Positions 13,263 to 35,848 of a stretch of 64,000 bases of DNA are shown here, piece by piece (positions within the stretch are counted from its first letter, which is position 1; each line of letters begins with the position of its first letter). The DNA is taken from the NCBI GenBank assembly GCA_049589355.1, contig JBAWAP010000384.1:2349-66348 (forward strand), written 5' to 3'. The position numbers and the translations under genes were made by a program. Below the pieces are notes generated by a model. The model saw only the letters and a list, made by a program, of their open reading frames with translations. It was not told the origin of the DNA and did no database searches. Origin of the DNA: Anaerolineae bacterium (GTDB lineage Bacteria > Chloroflexota > Anaerolineae > VGOG01).

Positions 13263-14147
13263 TTACAAAGTCAGGCCATGCTTCTCGGCGAGCATCCGCG
13301 CCCTGGCCATCAGCGCGTCGTGATAGGGCTTGCGGTTGGCGGCGATGTGGCGGTATCCCTCCACCAGGTCGGGGTAATGCCTCTCCAGCACCCTCCTGAC
13401 CTTGCCCCAGATCGCGCCGCTCAGTTTCATGCTGTCCACGAAAATGTAGGAGACACCCGCCCGCGCCAGTTCTCCGAAGAGGGCATCCATTTGCTCCTCT
13501 CCGTCTGAGAGGAAGGGCAGAAGCGGCCCGCAGAAGGCCCAGGTTCTGATCCCCGCACTCGCCAGCTCTGCCAGGGTTACCAGGCGGGCTGGAACAGGCG
13601 AGGAGCGGGGCTCAAACACGCGCCGCACCTCCTCGTCGAGAGTGGCGATGGTGAAGCCTATTTCTATGTCAGGGAGACGGAGAAGGAGGTCGAGGTCGCG
13701 CAGCACCAGGTCGGATTTGGTGAGGATGGAGACGGGAAAATCGCAGGCGGTGAGCACCTCCAGGCAGGCGCAAGTGATTTGATACTTCCTCTCCAGCGGC
13801 TGGTAGGGGTCGGTTACCGTGCCAATGGCGATGTTACCCCTCTTGGCTCGCCTCATCTGTCGGGCCAGCACCTCCGCTGCGTTGATCTTGGCGTCCACAA
13901 AGGTGCCCCAGTCCTCTTTGTGGCCGGTGAAGCGCTTCATGAAGATGGCGTAGCAGTAGACGCAGCCGTGGCTGCAGCCGACGTAGGGGTTGATGGCATA
14001 GTCAACCCCCTCGATGCCCGATTTGGTGAGGATGGACTTGCAGTTTATTTCCTTTACGATCACGTCGTGCTTTCCATGGTCACTGGTAATCCCCAAGCCA
14101 GTGGATTCTGGAGAAGTCGTCCCGGACAGTGTTGTACAGCCTCTCAT
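13263..14147 (-). CDS. Radical SAM protein, spore-photoproduct-lyase-like (SPL family)
   Basis: CSHGCVYCY CxxxCxxC motif; N-terminal KSILTKSG region typical of SPL-like 'DNA repair photolyase' radical SAM proteins. Confidence 0.75.
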   Translation of the reverse strand: MRGCTTLSGTTSPESTGLGITSDHGKHDVIVKEINCKSILTKSGIEGVDYAINPYVGCSHGCVYCYAIFMKRFTGHKEDWGTFVDAKINAAEVLARQMRRAKRGNIAIGTVTDPYQPLERKYQITCACLEVLTACDFPVSILTKSDLVLRDLDLLLRLPDIEIGFTIATLDEEVRRVFEPRSSPVPARLVTLAELASAGIRTWAFCGPLLPFLSDGEEQMDALFGELARAGVSYIFVDSMKLSGAIWGKVRRVLERHYPDLVEGYRHIAANRKPYHDALMARARMLAEKHGLTL

Positions 14148-14517
14148 CGGCTGTCCAGAACTCGCCTTCCATCATCTCGGCCAGGGCCAGGTAGTGAGTA
14201 TCATAGGCAGCGGGGCGGTCGAAGCGAGCGGCCAGGTCGAAGGCTTTCAAAGAGATGTTGGATGGGTGGAGTAGGCGCACTCCAAGCATAAGGGCCCCGC
14301 GGACGGCCTCTTTGGCCTCCTCCACACTCATTAGGCCCCGCTTCGCTTTTCGCCAGATGGCCGAGGTGATCTCGAAGCAGAAGAGGTAGGGAGCGACGAT
14401 TTCTCGATCCTCATTCAGCCATTTTCCCCACAAGGCCAAAGCGAGGGGGCGATCTGGTTCCGGGGCCACAAGTTTGACGACAATATTAGCATCAACGCAG
14501 ACCGGTGATCTCGGCAT
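14080..14517 (-). CDS. vapC: PIN-domain toxin VapC
   Basis: VDANIVV...CFEITSAIW...YDTHYLALAE acidic PIN residues. Start ATG at 14517 overlaps the antitoxin 3' end. Confidence 0.7.
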   Translation of the reverse strand: MPRSPVCVDANIVVKLVAPEPDRPLALALWGKWLNEDREIVAPYLFCFEITSAIWRKAKRGLMSVEEAKEAVRGALMLGVRLLHPSNISLKAFDLAARFDRPAAYDTHYLALAEMMEGEFWTADERLYNTVRDDFSRIHWLGDYQ

Positions 14518-14758
14518 CCCGCTCCTCCCGCATCTGGCGGATATCCTCGACGCAGCTAGGCATCTCGCCGTATTTCCGTTCGAGTTCATCACCCAAGGCT
14601 CGTACCCGCTCCAGTGCCTCCAGACTTTGTCTCCTCCGTATCTCCCGCTCTGTCGCCTCGGCGATCAATCGTGAACGCTCCCCACTGGGGATCAGCCGCT
14701 TGATCTCTTCCCAGAGCCCACGAGGGAAAACCAGGGAAACCCGTACTGTATCGCTCAT
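14492..14758 (-). CDS. Antitoxin (ribbon-helix-helix/VapB-like)
   Basis: 88 aa immediately upstream of and overlapping the PIN gene; basic N-terminus then helical C-terminus. Confidence 0.5.
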   Translation of the reverse strand: MSDTVRVSLVFPRGLWEEIKRLIPSGERSRLIAEATEREIRRRQSLEALERVRALGDELERKYGEMPSCVEDIRQMREERDAEITGLR

Positions 14759-15538: not shown

Positions 15539-15886
15539 TCAGAGGCCCTGCCTGATCGCATCCAGGGTAGCCCTGGCGGCAGGTACGAAGCCGAAGAAGC
15601 GCTCGATCTTCTCGCAGCCGTAGTCGTCGCAGTAAGCGCAGTTGAGGACACCTCGCTCCATGCCGCAGGCGCGGATGTCGCACTCATACCAGTGGCCGCA
15701 CTTGCGTTCTCCTTCGGTCACGCACCCGTCGCAGATGACCGATTCGACGGTGATGTCGGGCGCGTTGAACTCCTCGCGCCATTGCGCGGCCACTCGCTCC
15801 AGTGCGGCGTGGTCGTCTGCCTGGGTGGCGATGTAGGCCGGGCAGTCGCTGCATACCAGTCCACAGTAAGCGATGATCTTGTCCAT
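15539..15886 (-). CDS. DUF3795 cysteine-rich protein
   Basis: YCGLVCSDCPAY...CDGC...C..C.C...CAYCDDYGCEK. Confidence 0.75.
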   Translation of the reverse strand: MDKIIAYCGLVCSDCPAYIATQADDHAALERVAAQWREEFNAPDITVESVICDGCVTEGERKCGHWYECDIRACGMERGVLNCAYCDDYGCEKIERFFGFVPAARATLDAIRQGL

Positions 15887-15913: not shown

Positions 15914-16267
15914 TCACGCCGCTAGGCTGGCGCGGATACCATCCAAGGTGGCGCGGGCGTGGGGCGCCATGCCAAAGAAGCCCTCCAGCTTTTCGCAGGC
16001 GTAGTCGTCGCAGTAGGCACAATTGACGACGCCCCGCTCCATGCCACAAGCGCGAACCTGGCACTCAAAGCAATAGCCACACAATCGCTCGCTATCCGAC
16101 AGGCAACCGTCGCACATGGCGGATTCGATGGTGATGTCAGGATTATTGAATTGTTCCCTCGCTCGTGCGGCCATTCGTTCTAGTGCAGCCAGGTCATTCG
16201 TCTGGGTAGCAATGTATGCCTCGCAGTCGGTGCACACCAAACCACAATAGGCGATCATTTTGTCCAA
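15914..16267 (-). CDS. DUF3795 cysteine-rich protein (tandem paralog of 15539-15886)
   Basis: Near-identical architecture and many identical residues to the downstream paralog. Confidence 0.75.
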   Translation of the reverse strand: MDKMIAYCGLVCTDCEAYIATQTNDLAALERMAARAREQFNNPDITIESAMCDGCLSDSERLCGYCFECQVRACGMERGVVNCAYCDDYACEKLEGFFGMAPHARATLDGIRASLAA

Positions 16268-16452: not shown

Positions 16453-17496
16453 TCAAGCGTTTCTGGCTCTCATCCACTTGCGGAGCTGGGTCTTGGCCCA
16501 GCGATAGTGGCTGCTGGTGTTGGCGGCGGCCATGGTCCACAATGGGTTGCCGGCCCGCCATTCGAAGCGGTCTGGATCGATCAGGTCTTCTTCCGGCATG
16601 GCCTCTATCGTTTTCAGGACCTGCTGGTACGAGGCATGAAACTCGGCCAGTACATCGTCCAGGGGGCGATGGCGGTGTTTCTCAAAGGTCCGCTGGTTTA
16701 GAATGTCCAGGTCCCGCCAGGTGAGCCCAGGTTCTGGCGTTTCGGGAGTTAGGCCGCGCAGCCCTTCGTCGTACCAGCGCAGGAAGCGTTGCTCCCAGTC
16801 TACGAGATGGGCCAACAGGTCCTTGACCGACCACTCGCTCACGACGCCGGGCTGGATCATCTCATCTTCGTTTAATTCAGCCAAGTTCTTTTCCAACCGT
16901 CGCCGTTCGGCGCGGATTCTCTCCAGGATTATGTCCTTGTTCAACTGTTTGCCAGTGTGCTTTGTCTTCCAGCGGCGGATCTGCCTCTTCGCCCAGTCGT
17001 AGCAGTGGAAAGTATTGGCGGTGATGTAGTCAGCCAACGTCAGGTCTTCCGTCCAGGCAAAGCGACCAGGGGCAAACAGATCGGCTTCAGGGATTGTCTG
17101 TACGGTCGCCAGTACTTGCTGGAATGAAGTCATAAACTCGGCTAAAATGTCCTCCAGAGAGTGGCTACGATACTTCTCGATCTCGAGAACCAGGGCCTCA
17201 AAGCCATCTCGACTGACTTTGACGACAGGTGCTTCAGGGACATCACCCCGTGGACCAGCCCCGTACCAGTTCAGAAAACGTTGCTCCTGCGCTATGAGAT
17301 GAGCCAACAGTTCTTTGACCGACCATTCGCCTACGACACCTGGCTCCAACATCTCTTCTCTACCGAACTTGGGTCTGTTGCTGGCAACAAACGCCCCGTT
17401 GCTTCCTCGTTCGAAGTAGAAGAGGTATCTTTCCAATTGTCTATGCTTGACGCGGATTTGCTCAAGGAGTTCGTCCTTGCTCACCTTTTCTGCCAT
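16453..17496 (-). CDS. Tandem double ClbS/DfsB (DUF1706) four-helix-bundle protein
   Basis: Two repeats each containing WSVKELLAHL/WSVKDLLAHL and the C-terminal WAK/RQ motif. ClbS family = colibactin self-protection cyclopropane hydrolase fold. Confidence 0.65.
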   Translation of the reverse strand: MAEKVSKDELLEQIRVKHRQLERYLFYFERGSNGAFVASNRPKFGREEMLEPGVVGEWSVKELLAHLIAQEQRFLNWYGAGPRGDVPEAPVVKVSRDGFEALVLEIEKYRSHSLEDILAEFMTSFQQVLATVQTIPEADLFAPGRFAWTEDLTLADYITANTFHCYDWAKRQIRRWKTKHTGKQLNKDIILERIRAERRRLEKNLAELNEDEMIQPGVVSEWSVKDLLAHLVDWEQRFLRWYDEGLRGLTPETPEPGLTWRDLDILNQRTFEKHRHRPLDDVLAEFHASYQQVLKTIEAMPEEDLIDPDRFEWRAGNPLWTMAAANTSSHYRWAKTQLRKWMRARNA

Positions 17497-17511
17497 CTGA
17501 ATTTCCCCACG

Positions 17512-18312
17512 TCAAAACTCATGTGCATCAGATACGAATCTACCACCATCAACAGTGATACACTGGCCGTTGATGTACGACGAGTCGTCGCTGGCCAGGA
17601 ACAGCGCCACGCTGGCGATCTCTTCGACGGTGCAAACCCGTTTCAGGGGATAACCCTTTGCGATCCGGCCCAGCCACGCCTCGACTTCCTCCGGGCTGCG
17701 ATCACCCTCTGAGTTGGCGATCCGCACAAAGCCGGGGCAGATGGCGTTGGCGCGGATGTGGGGCGCAAAATCTATGGCCAGGGTCCTCGTCAGGGCGTTG
17801 ATGGCCGCCTTGGTCACGGGATAGACGCTGAAGTTCTTCATCACCTTAAACGCCGCGCCCGACGAGATGTTAACGATGGTCCCTCCGCCGCTCTCCAGGA
17901 TCAGGGGGATGGCGTATTTCGCAAACCTGAAGTAGCCATTCAGATTCACGTCAATAATGTGATTCCAGTTTTCTTCCAAGATCTCCACAACGTTTCTGAA
18001 AATGTCGCCTTCATAGGATGCGGCGCAGTTTACGAGGCAGTGCAACGCCCCGAACTCCTGCCGCGTGATTTCGACGGCTCGCTTGACCTCATCCGTTTTC
18101 GAGACATTGGCTCTGACGAACAGGGCCGTGCCTCCGTCCTCCCGGATCCGGTCGGCTGTTCTCTGGCCCATTTCCTCCAGGATGTCCACGACGACGACCT
18201 TGGCACCTTCGGAGGCAAGCTTGAAAGCGATGGCGCTGCCGATGGAGGGGCCGCCATATTTGTAGCCCAGGGCGGCCCCAGTAACCAGGGCCAATTTGTC
18301 TTGCATCTTCAC
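17512..18312 (-). CDS. SDR family oxidoreductase
   Basis: TGAALGYKYGGPSIG...NCAA...YPVTK motifs. Confidence 0.85.
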   Translation of the reverse strand: MKMQDKLALVTGAALGYKYGGPSIGSAIAFKLASEGAKVVVVDILEEMGQRTADRIREDGGTALFVRANVSKTDEVKRAVEITRQEFGALHCLVNCAASYEGDIFRNVVEILEENWNHIIDVNLNGYFRFAKYAIPLILESGGGTIVNISSGAAFKVMKNFSVYPVTKAAINALTRTLAIDFAPHIRANAICPGFVRIANSEGDRSPEEVEAWLGRIAKGYPLKRVCTVEEIASVALFLASDDSSYINGQCITVDGGRFVSDAHEF

Positions 18313-18339
18313 CGTTGATCTCCTCCTCTGTCCTGTGCC

Positions 18340-19317
18340 TCACAGACGAATCAGCTCTTCCAACCAGGGAACCGGCTCGTGCTTGCGTCGCCAAAACAGG
18401 TCCTCGAAGAGGTAGTGGGCGGCGAGCATCTTCCACTGGCCCCAGCGCCGGTCCACTTTGGCCAGGATCTGCTCGGCAGGTACAAGCTCTTGGTCAAACA
18501 GCAGCCGGGAGTAGATCTTTTGCTCCCACGGAGAGACGTGGTCAAACGCATCGTAACGATGGAAATTCCCGGACATCAGATACCACACTGTCGCCGGTCC
18601 GACGCCATAGAGCTTGAGCAGCGCTCGCTTCAACTCCTCGTTGGGTAGCTGGCGCAGAGCGTGGGCATCTATCTCGCCGTGAGCAAACTGGCTCGACATC
18701 CGCTTGAGCGATTTGGCCCGGTAGCCCACCTTGAGGGCGCGCAGGTCTTCCTCCGGCGCCGCATCCAGCACCTGCGGCGGCCAGAAGCCGTAGAGGACCT
18801 GGCCGTCGAAATGTAACCGGGTGCCATAGGCCCGAAAGAGGTTGTCCAGCATCTGCACCGAGCGGCGGACAGTGGCGTTCTGCAGCACGATGTAAACGAT
18901 CATGCTCTCGTAGAGGGGGCCAGTCACGTCGCGCATCCCCCGCCAGCGATGCAGGACCGGTTTCATCAATTCGTCGCGCTCAAGGGTGGCATTGAAGAGG
19001 GCAAGGTCAAGGTACAGATCAAAATTGTAGGCCACCTCGTCGCAGACAGCCTCGACATCCCCGGACGTCAGGGGGCGGTCGGCAAAGATCGTCAAACGCA
19101 ATAGCGGCTCGTCAACTGTGCCAACATTCTGAAGCTTGAGGCCGAAGAGATCGCTTCCCATGCGTTGAGTGACCCACAAGGTGCCCGGTTCCCAGAGTAC
19201 GTCGCCACTTGGAAAGTGACTGGGCTTGTGCACCGTGCCGTCAAAGTGGAATGGTGGCGTTGGCCGTATCTCTGTTTCGTGTGACACAGCCAGAGTCATT
19301 TGGGGTGCAGTGTCCAT
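18340..19317 (-). CDS. DNA-3-methyladenine glycosylase II-like (AlkA/HhH-GPD family)
   Basis: AlkA-like N-terminal domain plus HhH motif LYGVGPATVWYLM and catalytic Asp region. Confidence 0.7.
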   Translation of the reverse strand: MDTAPQMTLAVSHETEIRPTPPFHFDGTVHKPSHFPSGDVLWEPGTLWVTQRMGSDLFGLKLQNVGTVDEPLLRLTIFADRPLTSGDVEAVCDEVAYNFDLYLDLALFNATLERDELMKPVLHRWRGMRDVTGPLYESMIVYIVLQNATVRRSVQMLDNLFRAYGTRLHFDGQVLYGFWPPQVLDAAPEEDLRALKVGYRAKSLKRMSSQFAHGEIDAHALRQLPNEELKRALLKLYGVGPATVWYLMSGNFHRYDAFDHVSPWEQKIYSRLLFDQELVPAEQILAKVDRRWGQWKMLAAHYLFEDLFWRRKHEPVPWLEELIRL

Positions 19318-19346
19318 TCAACGATCCTCCGAGAGGGTAGTGGCGG

Positions 19347-19844
19347 CTAGTTGTCTCTACTTCGGAACTCTTCAATCTGCCTGTGGTGGGTTTTCTCATC
19401 CTTGATCTCCGCTTGCAGGAGGCGCGCGATGGTGACTTTGTAGCCCTTGTAGCGGATTCCTCGGTCTTTGCCGAACTCTTCGGCCGGAATCGTCTCCAGA
19501 CAGCCTATGAGCTTTCGGAGGGAGTCCTCCACAGACGAAAGAAGGTCCGCAAAGTCATCCCTCTTGTACTCTGCGACCAGGCGCGCGTTGTAGGTCTTCC
19601 AATCACGGTCCTCGTAGGAGTAAAAGGCGGGCAGTTCGCCAGCGAGGATTGCTCTCGCAGCTTCCATGTTGGTGAAATCCCATCCTACCAGGTGGGCCAG
19701 CAGATCTTTGACGGACCAAACGCCAAGAAAGGCCTCATCTTGTTGGACCGGGGGCAGGGCAGACGCGGCGTCGAGGATCTTCCGCCGTGTTTCTGTCAGT
19801 TCCGAGATAATCTCGTCCTTCTTTGCTTGGGCTTTGGCACTCAC
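19347..19844 (-). CDS. ClbS/DfsB (DUF1706) family protein
   Basis: WSVKDLLAHLVGW motif shared with the tandem-domain paralog at 16453-17496. Confidence 0.65.
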   Translation of the reverse strand: MSAKAQAKKDEIISELTETRRKILDAASALPPVQQDEAFLGVWSVKDLLAHLVGWDFTNMEAARAILAGELPAFYSYEDRDWKTYNARLVAEYKRDDFADLLSSVEDSLRKLIGCLETIPAEEFGKDRGIRYKGYKVTIARLLQAEIKDEKTHHRQIEEFRSRDN

Positions 19845-19926
19845 TGTCCATCTCCTAGATTCATTTCACAGTATCGTTGGGTCACGGCTTTTTCGTGAGC
19901 GCTCTCGAACTATCGAGGACTGCCAA

Positions 19927-20535
19927 TCACTTTACGAGGCTCAACGCCGCAGCGATGTCTTCCGCGATCATCCTTCTCTTGCTCTTCTCGATAAAGAAGC
20001 TGGGACCTGCCTGCAGGTAGGATGGGAACGCCCTCTTCTCTTGGAAGAAATATTCCTGCCCTCGGATCTTGTACGTGGACCCGGCGGGAATCACCCTCTC
20101 CTCACCGGCCCTCTTCGCGATGTAGTTAATGGCCTTGATGGCAACGTCGCCCATGAGCATCAGCACCTGCACATCTGGAAACAGGGCCAGTTCTTTCTCC
20201 AGCAGGAATGAACATTCCCTGATGGTGCTCGCCTCGATTCCGTATCCGGTCTTCCCGCATTTTACGGCAGTGGTGAGGTACACACCGAGATCGAGGATAT
20301 CCTGTATAGACGAGACATCCACACCAGCATCGTTGAATGCTTGAACGGTCGTCTGCTGAAACAAGGCCTCCCCTTCCGCATAGTAGTAGTCGCCAGAGTT
20401 CGCGGGTGCAGCTTCCGAGATCATCACGATGGAAATGTCCTCTGGCTTCACATTCACGTCCGGAATGATGTAGCACTCGTGCCTCACATCAGCACACGGA
20501 AAGTCTTTACATTCCACACACTTGCTCACTTGCAT
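19927..20535 (-). CDS. Uracil-DNA glycosylase superfamily protein (divergent, Cys-rich N-terminus)
   Basis: ~200 aa; CVECKDFPC N-terminal Cys cluster and UDG-like core. ATG at 20535 with GGAGG RBS. Confidence 0.45.
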   Translation of the reverse strand: MQVSKCVECKDFPCADVRHECYIIPDVNVKPEDISIVMISEAAPANSGDYYYAEGEALFQQTTVQAFNDAGVDVSSIQDILDLGVYLTTAVKCGKTGYGIEASTIRECSFLLEKELALFPDVQVLMLMGDVAIKAINYIAKRAGEERVIPAGSTYKIRGQEYFFQEKRAFPSYLQAGPSFFIEKSKRRMIAEDIAAALSLVK

Positions 20536-20587
20536 TTTGCCACCTCCTGCCAAATCTAACCCAGGACCTTCCCCTGGACTCTGGCGT

Positions 20588-21220
20588 CTAGGCCCCTTTC
20601 TCAACCGGATGTCTCAAGATCGTCCTTAGCCTCTCCGGCTTGGCCCGCCGAGGATCGCCCAAATAGATCTCATGATGTTTGCCACGAAGCCGATAGCCAT
20701 TCTCCCGAGCAAAGGTCATCATTTTCTCAATGGCTCGTGGCTCTTCAGCGTACGGTCCAAGGTGCATGATTTGCATACAAAGCCCTTCGTGGAAACCCTC
20801 AAATCGGATCTTAGATAAGGCTGGGTTTTCTCTCTTCTCTTTGACTTGTTGCAGGGCTTCCTGGTACATCTCCTCAGTGATGTGCTCTGGCTGCAGAATC
20901 ATCATCGTCCATTTCCAATCTTCTTTCTTGTTGAAATCGAACTCACCCGACTCCGTCCACCACAGCCCTTCCAGTGCCATCACTGTGTAATCAATAGGAT
21001 TCGTTTCTCGCAGTTTCGACATGAACTTCAACGTGTACGACACGCCGTACAGCGCACCCATTGCGCCCTGAAACTCCTGAGACGCTTCCGGTGTCTCACC
21101 GAGTTGGATCCCGCCGTCAACCATGACGAATTTGAACTTCGGCACGTCCACAATCTCCACCTTCTTTGCGGAGGGTGCGTAGAGGTACTTCAATTCCTTC
21201 TTTAGATCGATCTTGTTCAT
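20588..21220 (-). CDS. GyrI-like small-molecule-binding domain protein
   Basis: 210 aa, beta-alpha-beta-beta duplicated pattern. Family resemblance to YtkR7/C10R6-type cyclopropane hydrolases. Confidence 0.4.
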   Translation of the reverse strand: MNKIDLKKELKYLYAPSAKKVEIVDVPKFKFVMVDGGIQLGETPEASQEFQGAMGALYGVSYTLKFMSKLRETNPIDYTVMALEGLWWTESGEFDFNKKEDWKWTMMILQPEHITEEMYQEALQQVKEKRENPALSKIRFEGFHEGLCMQIMHLGPYAEEPRAIEKMMTFARENGYRLRGKHHEIYLGDPRRAKPERLRTILRHPVEKGA

Positions 21221-22644: not shown

Positions 22645-23667
22645 TCAAAAATTCAAGGTGTAAGACGATTCCCGCGCTGCGTGCGCAACGGCTAGGTTAA
22701 TCCGTTTTTGCACGCGCAGCACCAGGAAGGTGACCCAGGGCGAGGGGTTCTTCTTGTCGGCGAAGGACCAGCCCTTCCAGGCGCGGTACATCGAGCCCGC
22801 GGTGTAGTGGCCCTCCCCGTCCGCCTGAGCGGTGATCGTCTCCACCATCTCCCGGAAGCGAGGGTCAGTGTGAACGAACAGGAAACGGCTGAGCATGTCC
22901 ACCACGTGCAAGATGTCGTACCAGACGAACGGGTACTTGAGCTTGCGAAAGTCGGTACCGATGCCGAACATGTAGATCTTGCGCTCGATCCGGTGTTCCC
23001 AGTGCCAGAGGAGCATCTCGGCGCCAGTGCGTGTGGCCGGGCCGTCGAGCAATTCTGGAACCTGGGCCAGCGCCTTGAGCGCATAGACGTTGACGATGGG
23101 GCAGGGATCTTCTCTGCGCCCCGGCCCCTTGAACTTGCCCAGCTCCGGCGCGCCGACGCATCGCCAGCCGTTGCCGTCTACCAGGCCAATCAGGTGATCC
23201 ACCGCTCGCTGCACGCGCGGGTCGTTGCCCAGCCCCATCGCCAGCAAGGCGTAGAGCAACGTCGGTGCGTCGCACAGCATCCACGTCCATAAGTCCTCGC
23301 CTGTCCCACCAAAGGCCTCGGGGATGTTCACCAGGCTCTGGAAAGCCCCCTCCGGCGACTGGTGGGTCATCACAGCCTTGATGCCGGCGGACATACCCGG
23401 ATCATCCGCCCGTACGCCGAAGTCGGCCAGGGTGCTGAACTTGTAGAGGGGGTGGTTGGCGTCGTTGTGCCGCTGGAGGGCATAGCCGGGCCAGGTGGCG
23501 GCCTCGGCGATGAGCCCCTGCACTGGTGGATGGGCCAGCATCTCGGCGTGGGCAGTTTGCACTTCGGGGTCGTCTTCAGGCCGGTCGAGCAGATCCACCA
23601 GCGTGCGATACCGAGTCCAGGGCTCATCCGATTCCAGCAGCCATTGAATCAGATCAGTTTTTATCAT
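22645..23667 (-). CDS. Prenyltransferase/squalene-oxidase (QW) repeat alpha-toroid protein, paralog 1
   Basis: N-terminal DLIQWLLESDEPWTRYRTL motif; QxxxGxW-like repeats (QSPEGAF, VDGNGWRC, ADGEGHYT). Confidence 0.5.
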   Translation of the reverse strand: MIKTDLIQWLLESDEPWTRYRTLVDLLDRPEDDPEVQTAHAEMLAHPPVQGLIAEAATWPGYALQRHNDANHPLYKFSTLADFGVRADDPGMSAGIKAVMTHQSPEGAFQSLVNIPEAFGGTGEDLWTWMLCDAPTLLYALLAMGLGNDPRVQRAVDHLIGLVDGNGWRCVGAPELGKFKGPGRREDPCPIVNVYALKALAQVPELLDGPATRTGAEMLLWHWEHRIERKIYMFGIGTDFRKLKYPFVWYDILHVVDMLSRFLFVHTDPRFREMVETITAQADGEGHYTAGSMYRAWKGWSFADKKNPSPWVTFLVLRVQKRINLAVAHAARESSYTLNF

Positions 23668-23712: not shown

Positions 23713-24702
23713 TCATTCTTTGCTTAAAACCCGCATGTCCGCCTTGGAAAAATATCTAAATGCCCTTTCGCCGTACTCTTCGTCAAGCCTAGCCACATAG
23801 CTCCGAAGCGCTTCTAGTGCGAATACGCCGCCAGCATCATCACCAAAGGACATCTCTATGAACCACGCCCCTTTCCTCAACGCTCCCGTTGGAGTCAACC
23901 ATCCCTCTTCCGCTAGCGGGATGTGTTCACAGCGCACGCCGTATTCCTCCAGAGCCTTACAGTAGTCCTTCACCCTTGAATAGCTCGAGTGTATCTTCTG
24001 CGCCAAATAAGTCTCGCCGTCAATTACAAGGTCTGAACCACCTTCCTCCTTGGGTTGGCCGAAGCGTCCGAACGCCCACAATAGCTTAAGTAAGTGCCGT
24101 CTCCTTTTCTCGAGCACTGCCTGCCGGGCGTATGAGACATCGTTGACGACTTCTATCGCTGCTATGAGCCGATGGAGGGCTTCAAGCGCCGAGGTCTCTT
24201 CCTTGGAGAAGGGCAGGTCGTCGGGGAAGTCTACGAGTTCAGGCCTGGCGGAAACCTTGGTCATCTCTACGATGTCTTTCGGGCCAAGGGAAGCGCGTAT
24301 TTTATGCAGATGCTTAATGCCTTCGTAGGGCTCTATGAAAGTGAGGTAGTCTTCTTCTGGTATCGGGGTTCCTAGTCGGGCGGCGGTTCTCTCCCTCGCA
24401 TCCGCCGAGAGAGAAACCCTTGGCACATCTTCACAGGGGTAGCCAGAGCAATGGACGCAGGTCTTGACGCCGTTTCTTACCGCGCATCTTCGCACGTAGC
24501 AGTTCTGATAGCGCACCGGATTTTCATCGTCCGGCGCCTGGCAGCCATCGCAGAGGCGAAGCTTGGAAGGACTTAGTCGGAAGCCCAGGTATTTCGCCCA
24601 TCCGTCGCTGCATCGCTGTCTGTCCCCGTCGGTCTGAAGGGTTTCTTTGTAAGATGGGCAGCGGCCGCAGTTGCAACCGCATTTGGAAAACAAGTCTTTC
24701 AT
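23713..24702 (-). CDS. DUF3795 N-terminal Cys-rich domain fused to an uncharacterised ~200-aa C-terminal domain
   Basis: CGCNCGRCPSY...CDGC...C..C.C...CVHCSGYPCED, then a non-Cys domain. Confidence 0.55.
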   Translation of the reverse strand: MKDLFSKCGCNCGRCPSYKETLQTDGDRQRCSDGWAKYLGFRLSPSKLRLCDGCQAPDDENPVRYQNCYVRRCAVRNGVKTCVHCSGYPCEDVPRVSLSADARERTAARLGTPIPEEDYLTFIEPYEGIKHLHKIRASLGPKDIVEMTKVSARPELVDFPDDLPFSKEETSALEALHRLIAAIEVVNDVSYARQAVLEKRRRHLLKLLWAFGRFGQPKEEGGSDLVIDGETYLAQKIHSSYSRVKDYCKALEEYGVRCEHIPLAEEGWLTPTGALRKGAWFIEMSFGDDAGGVFALEALRSYVARLDEEYGERAFRYFSKADMRVLSKE

Positions 24703-32497: not shown

Positions 32498-32941
32498 TTA
32501 GCCAGGAAGAGGGACTCCACAGGCGCGGCAGGTCTCGCTATAGATGTCCACCGGTTTGCGGCAAGCAGGGCAGCGCCAGCGAGCCTCCTGCTCAACCAGC
32601 CAGGCATCGAGGCCGACCTCGGCCAGGCGGCGCAGGTTGGAGAGAGGGATGTCGCGGCGGTCGGCGCTGAAGGCGGCCAGTTCCTTGCAGGGAAAGTCCA
32701 TGCACTCATAGCAGAAGGTGATGCCCTGGTCCTGCGTGCAGGTCTTGAATCGGCAGTCCGGAGTCCAGAGGCAGTCAAAGGGGCCACGACAGCCCTCGCA
32801 GCGGATGTCCTCCGGCTGGCAGTGGAAGGCCTGGCGGGCGGCCCGTTCCAGCCGTTCGGTGTCCCTGTCTTTGTACATCCGGTAGATGCCGCAGGCCCCG
32901 CAGTAGAGACCGCAGGCGCTGGCTAATGTAGTGTCAGTCAT
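32498..32941 (-). CDS. DUF3795 cysteine-rich protein
   Basis: CGLYCGACGIY...CEGC...C..C..C...CYECMDFPCKEL. ATG at 32941 forms ATGA overlap with the stop of the upstream toroid gene. Confidence 0.75.
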   Translation of the reverse strand: MTDTTLASACGLYCGACGIYRMYKDRDTERLERAARQAFHCQPEDIRCEGCRGPFDCLWTPDCRFKTCTQDQGITFCYECMDFPCKELAAFSADRRDIPLSNLRRLAEVGLDAWLVEQEARWRCPACRKPVDIYSETCRACGVPLPG

Positions 32942-33837
32942 TTCACCTCTTCCCCGAATTGTTTGAGCACGTGCAAGGCTTTGAGTGTGATCCACTTGCT
33001 CGGTTGCCCATTGCGCTCGATGCGCACGGCGGTGGAGCCGCCCTCCTTGAACCAGCGACCATCGTCCTGCTGTTTCTTCACGACGTGCTGCACCAGTGTC
33101 CAAAACCGTGGGTCGGCGGCGTAGCCGCAGGCGGCCAGCGCCTCCAGCGCGTCCAGCAGGTCGGACTGAAAGTACCACGGGAAGCCGAATCGCAGCCAGC
33201 AGGCTTCCTCACCCTCGAAATCGAAGTCGTGGGAGAGGAGTGCTTCGGCTGTACGGGCTATCGCGCCGCGGACGTCCCAACCTTTAGGGGCGGCGGCAAA
33301 GGCCCACAGCGCTTTGACTGCCAGCCAGTGGCAGGGGTGCTGCTTCTGGTACCAACAGATGAGGCCATCGTCCTGCTCCAGCCGCTCAATCATCGCTCTC
33401 CAGCCTTCATCCACACGGGGATCGTCCCCGTAGCCGAAATGGGCGAGGAAGCGCAGGCAGTTGGCAGTGTAGCAGGGCACAATGCACACCGGCCGGCGCA
33501 TCGGGAGCCAGGGCTTGCTCAGCACGAACTCGCAGCCTCGGTGAGTGCGCTCGTCGGGCGGGACGCCTAAACGGGAAAGGATGAGGAGTTGTCCTGATGC
33601 GCGTTTGATCCCGGTTGCCCTTTCCGGCGTATCCCACCAGCCAGTGGGATCCTGGCGGGCGAAGATGGCCTGCACGTCCTTCGAGCCGGGGATAGCCGCG
33701 CGTGCCTCGCTCACTTCGGGGCTGCCGGTGGGCCGTTCAAGGATGTCGGTGAGCGTGAAGTAGCGCACCGAGGAATTATCTAGTTCGAGAAGCCAATCGG
33801 TTGGATCTGCCTTTAAGAGGTCTTTCCAATTCGCCAT
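32938..33837 (-). CDS. Prenyltransferase/QW-repeat alpha-toroid protein, paralog 2
   Basis: DLLKADPTDWLLELDNSSVRYFTL N-terminus; QDPTGWWD, QDDGLICWY, QQDDGRWFKEG repeats. Confidence 0.5.
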   Translation of the reverse strand: MANWKDLLKADPTDWLLELDNSSVRYFTLTDILERPTGSPEVSEARAAIPGSKDVQAIFARQDPTGWWDTPERATGIKRASGQLLILSRLGVPPDERTHRGCEFVLSKPWLPMRRPVCIVPCYTANCLRFLAHFGYGDDPRVDEGWRAMIERLEQDDGLICWYQKQHPCHWLAVKALWAFAAAPKGWDVRGAIARTAEALLSHDFDFEGEEACWLRFGFPWYFQSDLLDALEALAACGYAADPRFWTLVQHVVKKQQDDGRWFKEGGSTAVRIERNGQPSKWITLKALHVLKQFGEEVK

Positions 33838-34918: not shown

Positions 34919-35848
34919 TCAGGCATCCGCGGCCTTGATCGCGTACAGCGCCTGCCACGTGACCCATTTACTGGGTCGGCGACGCGGTTCCAGTGGGGTC
35001 CACATACGGCTACCGTAGGGATTAGCACCGTTCCAGCGACCGTCGTCACGGCGTCGGGTCTCCAGCCACTCTAGCGCCTTGCGAAAAGCGGGTTTTTCGT
35101 TCACGCGCCCCAGGTCGGTCAGGGCGCGCAGGGCGAAGAGCACGTCAGCCTGGTAAAAGAGCGGAAAGTTGAGCCGGTCCCACAACTTGTGGCGTGGGCC
35201 GCTGCTGGGATAGTTCCCCTCGCAGAGTTCAAAACGGCCCAGGAAGCAGACACCGCTCGCAACCGCCTCTTGGACAGCACCACTGCGCTCGCCGCTGGGG
35301 ATATGCCCGAAACCCCATAATGCCCGCACCACGCCCCAGGCGCAGGGCAGGTCTCCGTTGATGTTGCAACGCCACTCCCCCGGCGTGCCTGCGCGGGCCA
35401 GTTCTGCCTCGAACTCCCCCACCCGTTCATCCTGTCCGTGACCGAGGGCGTGCAGGTAACCGATAAGGTTGCCGTGGAAGCAGGGCCAGACAGTGGAGCG
35501 GTCCTCACCGTACACCCTGTCAATCATCCGATGGCAGGCAGCGGCGATACGTTCGTCCTGCCCATCGGCGGCGAGTTCGGCCAGCAGGAGCAATTGCCAA
35601 TGAGTCGAGGTATACTTGTAAGTGTAATAACCCCGCTCACCTTCCCAGCGTCCATCGCCGGCATAGTGGGAGAGAATCTCGACCGCCGGCCCTCGTTCCA
35701 GGATCGCCCGACGCATCTCGATCACTTCCGCATCTCCCTCGGTTCGGTCGAGCAACTTGACCAACGTCCAGTAGCGAACCGAGGGGTTCTCTGGCTCCAG
35801 CAGCCATTCCGTCGGGTCGGCTTTGAGTCTACTTTTCCAGTTTCTCAT
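34919..35848 (-). CDS. Prenyltransferase/QW-repeat alpha-toroid protein, paralog 3
   Basis: RLKADPTEWLLEPENPSVRYWTL N-terminus; AGDGRWEGE, RRDDGRWNGANP repeats. Confidence 0.5.
   Translation of the reverse strand: MRNWKSRLKADPTEWLLEPENPSVRYWTLVKLLDRTEGDAEVIEMRRAILERGPAVEILSHYAGDGRWEGERGYYTYKYTSTHWQLLLLAELAADGQDERIAAACHRMIDRVYGEDRSTVWPCFHGNLIGYLHALGHGQDERVGEFEAELARAGTPGEWRCNINGDLPCAWGVVRALWGFGHIPSGERSGAVQEAVASGVCFLGRFELCEGNYPSSGPRHKLWDRLNFPLFYQADVLFALRALTDLGRVNEKPAFRKALEWLETRRRDDGRWNGANPYGSRMWTPLEPRRRPSKWVTWQALYAIKAADA

Follow-up and report, generated by a model that had tools for sequence, protein, structure and literature searches.

A tandem DUF1706 protein with histidine at the ClbS tyrosine position in a candidate genotoxin defence gene string of an Anaerolineae bacterium

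The stretch of DNA analysed here (64 kb, hereafter the window) carries a co-directional string of genes in the order GyrI-like CCH, UDG-like, 165-aa DinB-like, HhH-GPD-like, SDR and tandem DUF1706. The source organism is an environmental Anaerolineae MAG. The features of the locus are as follows.

16453..17496, minus strand: tandem DUF1706 (ClbS/DfsB-fold) protein, 347 aa; Pfam PF08020 in two stretches
16957..17496, minus strand: its N-terminal domain d1, aa 1-180; DUF1706, 82.7 bits
16456..16956, minus strand: its C-terminal domain d2, aa 181-347; DUF1706, 132.3 bits
17512..18312, minus strand: classical SDR oxidoreductase, 266 aa; adh_short_C2 211 bits; ends 15 nt before the tandem gene
18340..19317, minus strand: HhH-GPD-superfamily (AlkA/Ogg-like) glycosylase-like protein, 325 aa; PF00730 24.1 bits
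19347..19844, minus strand: DinB-superfamily protein with a DUF1706-like fold, 165 aa; DUF1706 36.7 bits, DinB_2 35.6 bits
19892..19909, no strand: near-perfect 18-bp palindrome, TTCGTGAGCGCTCTCGAA, within the 82 nt that precede the 165-aa gene
19927..20604, minus strand: UDG-superfamily-like protein with a Cys-rich N-terminus; PF03167 26.3 bits (threshold 24.3)
20588..21220, minus strand: GyrI-like protein, Lin2189/YtkR7 type (CCH); PDB 3b49 (Lin2189), E 3.7e-46

The four open reading frames of 347, 266, 325 and 165 aa were confirmed at these coordinates, all on the minus strand. Intergenic gaps in the string are 15, 27, 29 and 82 nt, and scans for promoters and terminators, which are uncalibrated for Chloroflexota, revealed no terminator-like site inside the string on the minus strand. 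The six genes may thus be co-transcribed. HMMs built from the three DUF1706 domains found no further match among the open reading frames of the window, and no PKS/NRPS-sized gene is present in its 64 kb, where the largest open reading frame has 999 aa.

The two halves of the 347-aa protein were scanned separately against PF08020 (DUF1706), for which the gathering threshold is 24.2 bits. All three domains scored above it, and the whole tandem protein matched in two stretches with E 4.6e-62. The initial annotation, which had described a tandem protein plus a third domain nearby and had assigned them to ClbS/DfsB, was borne out on both points (82.7, 132.3 and 36.7 bits). Both proteins, the 347-aa and the 165-aa one, lie in or at the edge of the ClbS/DfsB branch (DUF1706). 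The tandem halves are 42 % identical to each other, and hhalign aligned d1 and d2 with E 4.8e-68, leaving a 16-residue gap in d2; here d1 carries a conserved 16-aa beta-hairpin insertion without counterpart in d2. In the AF2 model (pLDDT 88) each domain matched ClbS (6anr) with TM 0.84, rmsd 1.9 A and 24 % identity. The top 10 PDB matches of the tandem protein were all DUF1706 structures (TM 0.77-0.84), and YfiT appeared only at E 0.1. A basic, aromatic C-terminal helix motif, H/x-Y-x-W-A-K-x-Q-I-R-x-W, is kept in both tandem domains, even in the degenerate d1.

The 165-aa protein is a marginal DUF1706 member, being above the threshold while scoring nearly equally on DinB_2 and passing that threshold as well. 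Source annotations for its family read "DinB family protein". Its AF2 model (pLDDT 93.6) has an unbroken last helix, and Foldseek placed ClbS on top at TM 0.75, with YfiT next at 0.66-0.68 and DUF664 and MST structures likewise close behind. H51, D149 and H153 were invariant across 27 members of the 165-aa family, and H51 aligned to H67 of YfiT (E 0.014, at very low sequence similarity). In YfiT, H67, H160 and H164 form a metal site, and eight divergent DinB-superfamily members are metal-dependent thiol transferases. The 165-aa protein has both parts of the DinB metal triad, the first-motif His and D/H-x3-H in the last helix.

Published work on ClbS describes Tyr55 as critical and the Y55F variant as inactive; Tyr55 is the only ClbS catalytic residue that was compared here. 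All three domains carry His at this column (H66 in d1, H230 in d2 and H51 in the 165-aa protein), whereas Tyr was found in five of five aligned solved DUF1706 structures. None of them therefore has the catalytic tyrosine of the ClbS type. Furthermore, the kink proline of ClbS/DfsB is His or Cys in the window domains. ClbS-like catalysis, as the initial annotation had proposed while itself counting absent catalytic residues against it, is not supported, given this replacement of Tyr55 in all three domains. DUF1706 proteins were described as lacking the DinB metal-binding residues and as having a last helix with a conserved Pro kink (Taylor 2016), and the metal triad is reported to be absent from ClbS and DfsB. 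The window proteins depart from these traits: the 165-aa family has the metal triad and the unbroken helix, and d2 has H230 and H330 together with His for Pro.

The two tandem domains differ at the triad columns. Within the tandem family, d2 has H230 in 36/36, N326 in 35/36 and H330 in 36/36 members, while in d1 His stands at the first of these columns in 22/36 members and at the third in 24/36, and the second has no consensus; d1 of the window protein reads H-N-C. The DinB metal triad is thus only partly present in d2 and not present in d1. Mean conservation is 0.67 for d2 versus 0.52 for d1, where the insertion is the best-conserved block. Relatives with a single domain align to d2, which would make d2 the more ancestral-like half of the tandem protein. 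Of 123 single-domain representatives, 78 have H-N-H and 8 have H-D-H, in favour of these columns being homologous to the DinB triad. Asn is an unusual metal ligand, and this second position varies among the single-domain relatives. H230, N326 and H330 would probably lie close in space. In the d2 model the last helix is broken at N326/T327, though His replaces Pro, and hhalign of d2 against the 165-aa family did not align the last helices. Other conserved polar residues in d2 are K225, D226, E235 and N267.

The three domains are mutually 24-42 % identical and form separate families, each with its own orthologues. They are therefore old paralogues, and a dosage effect, as had been read from their number, is wrong; d1 is moreover degenerate at the putative site.

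The gene at 20588-21220 lies 750 bp from the DUF1706 genes and had not been used in the initial annotation. Its product is 46 % identical to Lin2189 over the full length. Lin2189 is a characterised yatakemycin/CC-1065 cyclopropane hydrolase, and CCHs, which are widespread in non-producers, are recognised by the acidic pair E157/E185 and an aromatic cage of Y46, W85, W99, F154 and Y187 (PMC5684135). The window protein has both: the catalytic Glu pair is kept (E157->E160, E185->E184), three cage residues are identical (W85->W87, W99->W102, Y187->Y186), two are conservatively exchanged, aromatic for aromatic (Y46->F50, F154->Y157), and further aromatics are found at Y54->Y58 and Y58->Y62. Judged by its sequence, it is a convincing candidate, and the best one at the locus, for hydrolysis of cyclopropane warheads. 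Cyclopropane-warhead hydrolysis, as suggested earlier for this locus, is not upheld for the DUF1706 domains, which have no Tyr55; the theme itself is backed independently by this Lin2189-type GyrI-like protein.

An SDR gene and an AlkA-like gene had been placed between the DUF1706 genes, and this gene order holds. The SDR (211 bits) also matched the NCBIfam glucose-1-dehydrogenase subfamily at 218 bits (cut-off 215). The 325-aa protein is HhH-GPD-like by its structure matches; its PF00730 score of 24.1 is just under the threshold of 26.2, and it matched the bacterial Ogg/3-methyladenine glycosylases PDB 4ejy (E 1.1e-19) and CacOgg (E 6e-17). Glycosylases of the AlkA/Ogg type have an HhH hairpin (G-I/V-G) and, about 20 residues further on, a catalytic Asp; bifunctional ones also have Lys behind the hairpin. 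In an alignment of its family (n=28) both Gly of the hairpin G238-V-G240 are invariant. The Lys position (242) is Ala or Gln in 28/28 members and never Lys, hence the protein is not a bifunctional Ogg. At the HMMER-aligned position of the catalytic Asp stands Ser262, with Ser in 25/28 members, and the protein may be inactive as a glycosylase. Nearby, every member has an acidic residue at positions 256 and 259, and 27/28 have Glu at the position of E265. The UDG-like protein matched the Thermus family-5 UDG 2d3y in part (E 5.6e-5), and its gene likely starts at the ATG at about 20535.

Relatives of the DUF1706 genes were then compared across genomes. The tandem form, described as rare beforehand, is indeed so, as it occurred in about 5 of the best 80 species-genome loci and in about 20 of the best 150 clusters at 50 % identity (2,866 relatives in all). 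It is not unique, with about 100 full-length tandem clusters at 90 % identity, mostly from Anaerolineales/Chloroflexota, and represents a rare but established Anaerolineales lineage. His-type DUF1706 proteins, with the signature W-S-V-K-D-L-L-A-H ... N/D-T-x-x-H-Y-x-W, were confirmed at no fewer than 513 loci of species-representative genomes from Chloroflexota, Acidobacteriota, Gemmatimonadota and Asgard archaea. Their flanks differ greatly from locus to locus, with 183 Pfam families in 130 flanking proteins, and include methyltransferases, GNATs, hydrolases, glyoxalases and MFS transporters. Synteny with the DUF1706 homologues was not seen for the HhH-GPD, UDG-like and SDR genes (0-6 of 80 related loci; the UDG-like gene in 0/80, the SDR with no more than generic SDR matches), so the exact gene string is not a conserved module. 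Parts of it recur. At 5 loci a Lin2189-type orthologue (53-63 % identity) is found no more than about 3 kb away from a His-type DUF1706 gene, and a sixth locus has a more distant GyrI-like homologue (39 %) at this distance; by a rough estimate, about 0.1 such cases would be expected by chance. At locus L090 an AlkD-type DNA_alkylation glycosylase gene is adjacent to orthologues of the 165-aa (67 %) and the tandem protein (61 %) and a DinB_2 gene. At two other loci, L088 and L089, the tandem gene adjoins a further DUF1706 gene, and DinB_2 and glyoxalase genes lie close by.

We propose, with about equal readiness to believe and to doubt it, that the locus is a defence cluster acting in layers against electrophilic, DNA-alkylating compounds and that its DUF1706 domains are of a His/metal type, not ClbS orthologues. 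The domain families, folds, conserved residues, gene order and recurrence in other genomes are observed; metal binding, catalysis, substrates and co-transcription are what we infer. In all three domains the His at the Tyr55 column takes the position of the first DinB metal ligand. For the 165-aa protein we predict a metal-dependent thiol-S-transferase/hydrolase-type activity, in which an electrophile would receive a thiol or water. The 347-aa protein is an old internal duplication and would work as a covalent pseudo-dimer, with d2 as the predicted active domain, because of its invariant H230/N326/H330 and its Trp-rich, highly conserved pocket region. As d1 has lost the constraint on the triad and gained the conserved beta-hairpin insertion, it may serve d2 as a partner, either structurally or in binding substrate or DNA. 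The string as a whole would most likely give layered protection against electrophilic, DNA-alkylating small molecules from other microbes: the compound would be inactivated by the CCH and the DinB-type enzymes, possibly also by the SDR, and lesions would be removed by the glycosylase-like proteins. In favour of a defence role, CCH orthologues recur beside His-type DUF1706 genes, the 165-aa/tandem pair is found again at L090 beside an AlkD-type glycosylase gene, the gaps in the window are short, and DinB-family gene pairs of mycobacteria that respond to genotoxic stress offer a precedent.

These same observations speak against a possible, if somewhat unlikely, alternative, namely that the genes encode generic stress or housekeeping DinB proteins with no specific genotoxin link, brought together by the heterogeneous arrays of small accessory "detox" genes that typify Anaerolineae and by local duplication. 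The extreme diversity of the subfamily flanks agrees with it, as does the presence of HhH-GPD, UDG-like and SDR genes in so few related loci; elsewhere, one 165-aa orthologue lies among lactamase_B, isochorismatase, AKR, HAD and esterase genes, and some phyla have many DinB-superfamily genes per genome according to the literature. It does not account well for GyrI-like homologues, five of them Lin2189-type orthologues, at six loci, for the recurrence of the 165-aa/tandem pair in L090 beside a non-homologous alkylation-repair glycosylase, or for the very short gaps.

We regard as improbable the reading that all three are metal-free cyclopropane hydrolases like ClbS, with His replacing Tyr55 and the copies raising capacity against colibactin-like warheads. 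The tandem domains are clearly ClbS-fold, His is capable of a general acid/base role, ClbS-like proteins down to about 25-27 % identity shielded E. coli from colibactin in published work, and a genuine cyclopropane hydrolase of another family sits in the same string. However, the inactivity of Y55F, the loss of the kink Pro, the metal triad kept by the 165-aa protein, the degenerate site of d1 and the age of the paralogues all argue against it. The window also has no PKS/NRPS-sized open reading frame, but orphan clbS-like genes exist in non-producers, and association with a biosynthetic cluster is not strictly required. Least likely are non-enzymatic domains, either DNA-binding protectors or DfsB-like precursors of a cationic peptide: the basic, aromatic helix motif kept even in d1, the binding of dsDNA by ClbS (PDB 7mtl being a top structural match) and the non-enzymatic role proposed for DfsB in the literature fit, but the invariant His pair with K225, D226, E235 and N267 in d2 suggests a catalytic or ligand site, the 165-aa family has a complete metal triad, and the translations show no obvious hydrophobic N-terminal signal sequence.

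Several known systems can be compared. With ClbS (colibactin self-resistance on the E. coli pks island; 6anr, 7mtl) the window proteins share DUF1706, the fold and, in the tandem domains, the broken or kinked last helix. ClbS, however, is a single domain with Tyr55 and the kink Pro, compared with a tandem protein with His and His/Cys, and the window, from an environmental Anaerolineae MAG, has no colibactin-type biosynthetic cluster nearby. The DfsB/Slf precursor of Paenibacillus dendritiformis (5civ) and the structures 5cof, 5cog, 4n6c and 5com are alike in family, fold and the cationic aromatic C-terminal helix, but DfsB is monomeric, lacks metal ligands and was described as non-enzymatic and secreted, whereas His is retained at ligand positions in the window proteins. 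The DinB/STL metal-dependent thiol S-transferases, YfiT/BstA among them (1rxq, 5wk0, 8f5v), resemble the 165-aa protein in that its His51 equals YfiT His67 and D-x3-H stands against H/H-x3-H, and they resemble d2 in the retained H...N-x3-H; yet the window triads are His-Asp-His and His-Asn-His instead of three His, and the 165-aa fold is closer to ClbS. The Lin2189/YtkR7/C10R6 CCHs (PMC5684135) resemble the neighbour at 20588-21220, not the DUF1706 genes, and no yatakemycin/CC-1065 cluster lies at the window locus. [quoted passage not shown] In addition, among the genes annotated here no WYL regulator was identified adjoining the window genes.

The name of the family deserves caution. It invites the reading of any member as a colibactin or cyclopropane resistance gene. 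To our knowledge, ClbS is the only DUF1706 protein with known enzymatic activity, and for this reason databases label the whole family "ClbS/DfsB". A large environmental branch has the predicted DinB-type His ligands where ClbS has Tyr, so the family name is not enough to assign the function of ClbS to a member. If the members of this branch were metal-dependent detoxifying enzymes, they would mark a route from metal-dependent DinB ancestors to the metal-free ClbS hydrolase, and the natural resistome against natural products that alkylate DNA would gain a further component. We put forward the wider version of this idea only as a speculation that is unlikely to hold in full: His-type DUF1706 proteins would be the metal-dependent intermediate between DinB thiol transferases and metal-free ClbS, inactivating electrophilic genotoxins in environmental microbes, often beside Lin2189-type hydrolases, and the tandem form an obligate pseudo-heterodimer of one catalytic and one remodelled beta-hairpin domain. 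The co-location with Lin2189-type hydrolase and glycosylase-like genes makes the locus a concrete and testable candidate for genotoxin defence in several layers among uncultured Anaerolineae.

The palindrome TTCGTGAGCGCTCTCGAA upstream of the 165-aa gene has a single copy in the window. With up to 3 mismatches allowed, 10 of 100 shuffled sequences gave one or more matches, and the element may, on this slight indication, be an operator or a hairpin.

The flagged genes sit within a long stretch of minus-strand genes among the window ORFs. Four ORFs were found exactly where the initial annotation had placed them (16453-19844), comprising three ClbS/DfsB-like domains with an SDR and an HhH-GPD-like gene in between. 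They are separated by 15, 27 and 29 nt, and two further genes lie upstream in the same orientation.

Genes of the locus
16453-17496, minus strand: tandem DUF1706 protein, 347 aa (Pfam DUF1706, PF08020)
17512-18312, minus strand: classical SDR, 266 aa, lying between the two DUF1706-type genes
18340-19317, minus strand: HhH-GPD-superfamily protein, 325 aa; nearest structures are bacterial Ogg/3-methyladenine glycosylases
19347-19844, minus strand: DUF1706/DinB-like protein, 165 aa (DUF1706 and DinB_2 above threshold)
19927-20604, minus strand: UDG-superfamily-like gene, directly upstream (26.3 bits)
20588-21220, minus strand: GyrI-like gene, upstream of the UDG-like gene

HMMs of the three domains matched no other ORF in the window. 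Parts of the locus are contained in the Logan assemblies of run SRR28022779. Promoter and terminator scans returned counts at or below shuffled expectation and were uninformative. A single-copy, near-perfect 18-bp palindrome, TTCGTGAGCGCTCTCGAA, lies at 19892-19909, inside the 82 nt that separate the 165-aa gene from its upstream neighbour; it may serve as an operator or form a hairpin, with weak statistics.

PF08020 matched the tandem protein in two stretches (E 4.6e-62), and the halves scanned singly scored 82.7 bits (aa 1-180) and 132.3 bits (aa 181-347) at a threshold of 24.2 bits. Both halves share 42 % identity (hhalign E 4.8e-68), and AlphaFold models the protein as two four-helix bundles (pLDDT 88). 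The top ten PDB matches of this model were all DUF1706 structures, with ClbS (6anr) at a TM of 0.84, an rmsd of 1.9 A and 24 % identity, and YfiT came up only at E 0.1. The initial annotation had read the three domains as ClbS-type cyclopropane-warhead hydrolases, and had itself named absence of the catalytic residues as grounds for refutation. By that criterion the reading is refuted, as Tyr55 of ClbS is replaced by His in all three domains; of the ClbS catalytic residues the comparison covers Tyr55 alone, which was taken from a secondary source. In a gapless alignment, the counterparts of the ClbS motif LVS-Y55-LIGW are LLA-H-LVDW around H230 of the C-terminal domain, LLA-H-LIAQ around H66 of the N-terminal domain and LLA-H-LVGW around H51 of the 165-aa protein. 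Tyr occupies this position in each of the five solved DUF1706 structures aligned (ClbS, E. coli 5cof, S. pneumoniae 4n6c, yeast IRC4 and P. dendritiformis DfsB), and Pro occupies the H330 position, in a motif N-T-x-x-P. The window domains carry His/His or, in the N-terminal domain, His/Cys. ClbS and DfsB have been described as lacking the His...Asp-x3-His metal motif.

The 165-aa protein scored 36.7 bits against DUF1706 and 35.6 bits against DinB_2, and is 24-27 % identical to either tandem half. ClbS was the nearest fold match of its AlphaFold model (pLDDT 93.6; TM 0.75), with YfiT, DUF664 and mycothiol-transferase structures close behind. Its family comprises 814 matches, and source databases name the members "DinB family protein". 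H51, D149 and H153 are invariant in 27 members (66-90 % identical) and, judged from sequence, form a canonical His...Asp-x3-His triad. H51 aligned to His67 of YfiT, which together with His160 and His164 makes up the metal site of the DinB/STL superfamily. Proteins of this superfamily are metal-dependent thiol S-transferases. Certain proteins of the 165-aa family reach about 265-275 aa (P0146, P0182, P0210, P0235 and others), and part of these longer proteins contain TfoX_N/YjbR-type domains (PF04993, PF04237).

The best 150 representative clusters include 123 single-domain proteins; their triad columns read H-N-H in 78 and H-D-H in 8, which argues that the three columns are homologous to the DinB triad. 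In the hhalign mapping of N326/H330 onto D149/H153 the alignment ended before the last helix, and the H-D-H variants lend this correspondence indirect support. Taken together, triad conservation and the H-N-H and H-D-H variants suggest a series from DinB through the 165-aa type and His-type DUF1706 (members with His where ClbS has Tyr55) to ClbS/DfsB. DinB members would pair H with D/H-x3-H on a last helix that is straight, and the 165-aa type would carry the full triad on a ClbS-like fold. In His-type DUF1706 the residues would be H and N-x3-H and the helix kinked, and ClbS/DfsB would have Y and N-x3-P and no metal.

The two domains of the tandem protein are not equivalent. Across the tandem family (n=36), H230 and H330 of the C-terminal domain are present in 36/36 and N326 in 35/36 members, whereas the equivalent N-terminal positions are His in 22/36, without consensus, and His in 24/36; the window protein itself reads H-N-C there. 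Mean top-residue frequency is 0.67 in the C-terminal domain, with maximal conservation at the His motifs and the loop between them, as against 0.52 in the N-terminal domain, where the counterpart of this loop is variable and modelled with low confidence. The N-terminal domain also has a 16-residue beta-hairpin insertion absent from the C-terminal domain, the start of which is its best-conserved block. Single-domain relatives match the C-terminal domain almost exclusively. The dosage proposed in the initial annotation does not fit an N-terminal domain that is less conserved, remodelled and varied at the His positions. Most DinB-superfamily proteins are homodimers (PMC10693628). The simplest reading of the tandem protein is a covalent pseudo-dimer in which one domain is conserved and probably active and the other is a remodelled partner.

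The GyrI-like protein, absent from the finding of the initial annotation, shares 46 % identity with Lin2189 along its full length (E 3.7e-46). The latter, a cyclopropanoid cyclopropyl hydrolase characterised by structure and biochemistry, destroys yatakemycin and CC-1065 (PMC5684135); such enzymes require two acidic residues, E157 and E185, and a cage of aromatic residues (PMC5684135). The window protein keeps both catalytic Glu and the cage: E160, E184, W87, W102, Y186, Y58 and Y62 are identical to their Lin2189 counterparts, and the exchanges Y46 to F50 and F154 to Y157 are conservative. It is the GyrI-like gene, rather than the DUF1706 genes, that makes a credible cyclopropane-warhead hydrolase and the strongest candidate in the locus.

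For the 18340-19317 product, the label "AlkA-like" is acceptable at superfamily level (HhH-GPD, with an invariant G-V/I-G hairpin in the family). The closest structure to this protein was 4ejy (E 1e-19), among bacterial Ogg/3-methyladenine glycosylases. It is matched at 100 % identity by a hypothetical protein from a MAG listed by NCBI as "Anaerolineae bacterium", and the family has 2,946 matches, named "3-methyladenine/8-oxoguanine DNA glycosylase" by JGI. The Ogg lyase Lys is absent throughout, with Ala or Gln instead, and the catalytic-Asp position in the HMMER alignment is Ser262 in 25 of 28 members; positions 256 and 259 are always acidic and 265 nearly always. The family may represent a glycosylase clade that is atypical or inactive. 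The UDG-like protein has a Cys-rich N-terminus (CVECKDFPC...C) and only a partial match to the Thermus family-5 UDG 2d3y. The listed TTG start of its gene overlaps the GyrI-like gene, and the ATG 23 codons downstream is the more plausible start.

The most likely reading, to which we give an even chance, places the flagged genes in the ClbS/DfsB branch as DinB-type members with a His/metal site; these predicted metal enzymes would act alongside the Lin2189-type hydrolase, the SDR and the glycosylase-like proteins in a layered defence against electrophilic, DNA-alkylating compounds. Family, fold, residues and context are computed here, and metal binding, catalysis, substrates and co-transcription are what we infer. 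Gene context in other genomes bears on this reading and on its main alternative, unrelated stress proteins within a heterogeneous accessory gene array, which we regard as unlikely but worth weighing. Flanks of the His-type subfamily are very heterogeneous, with 183 Pfam families represented in 130 neighbouring proteins; the commonest of these are methyltransferases, GNATs, alpha/beta-hydrolases, GyrI-like and glyoxalase proteins, and the census returned no dominant partner family. A conserved six-gene operon was rejected, as the HhH-GPD and UDG-like genes occurred in 0/80 related loci and SDR matches were generic only. The unconserved arrangement and heterogeneous flanks weaken the case for a fixed module. 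On the other side, five other loci carry GyrI-like orthologues (53-63 % identity) no more than about 3 kb from single-domain His-type DUF1706 genes, and a sixth has a more distant homologue (39 %) similarly placed. Furthermore, the nearest NCBI relative of the tandem gene (locus L090; GCA_975902795.1, 764-4019) has, adjacent and in this order, an AlkD-type DNA_alkylation glycosylase, the 165-aa orthologue (67 %), the tandem gene (61 %) and a DinB_2 gene. The pair beside an alkylation-repair glycosylase thus recurs, with a glycosylase non-homologous to that of the window. In L088 and L089 a single-domain DUF1706 gene comes directly after the tandem gene, and DinB_2, glyoxalase, GNAT and MFS genes lie close by.

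That the three domains are ClbS-like hydrolases using His in place of Tyr is improbable: they share the ClbS fold but differ from ClbS at Tyr55. A literature search for a His-type ClbS variant found none. A non-enzymatic, DNA-binding or DfsB-like role is very improbable. Two other roles were rejected: anti-phage defence, as PADLOC matched 0 of seven genes, and self-resistance within a biosynthetic cluster, as the window holds no megasynthase-sized ORFs.

A base of 1.84 billion representative proteins contains 2,866 relatives at E <= 1e-3, 85 of them at E <= 1e-30. Tandem-sized two-domain proteins made up about 20 of the 150 best representative clusters, and full-length tandem proteins form about 100 clusters at 90 % identity, of which the few named ones are Anaerolineales or Chloroflexota. 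Species-representative genomes yielded 513 confirmed relatives with a His-containing motif, and a complete tandem gene occurred in only about 5 of the 80 best such loci. The tandem form, already labelled "ClbS/DfsB family four-helix bundle protein" by NCBI, is rare, yet an established lineage. The single-domain form is present in Chloroflexota, Acidobacteriota, Gemmatimonadota and Thor/Promethearchaeota MAGs. In the Asgard archaeal MAGs (L006-L009) the single-domain His-type genes reach 53-56 % identity with the window protein, more than most bacterial single-domain relatives do; this may reflect horizontal transfer or mis-binning.

Several other genes of the window deserve mention. A 340-aa ORF (22645-23667, minus strand) has paralogues at 32938-33837 and 34919-35848 and matched nothing by sequence in Pfam, NCBIfam or the PDB; six further loci (L004, L015, L027, L040, L045 and L055) have homologues of it (24-64 % identity) no more than a few kb from DUF1706 homologues. 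Just downstream of the tandem gene are two adjacent Cys-rich DUF3795 genes, 70 % identical (15539-15886 and 15914-16267, minus strand), and further DUF3795-containing ORFs lie at 23713-24702 and 32498-33178. A PIN-domain ORF (14080-14592, minus strand) and an overlapping upstream 88-aa ORF (14492-14758, minus strand) look like a toxin-antitoxin pair within the gene string, and a perfect sigma-70-like promoter match lies at 14821-14793. A radical SAM gene of the Rv2578c / PA0069 / "mobile pair protein B" type (13263-14147, minus strand; 177-193 bits, under curated cut-offs) adjoins an SDR and a class I methyltransferase.
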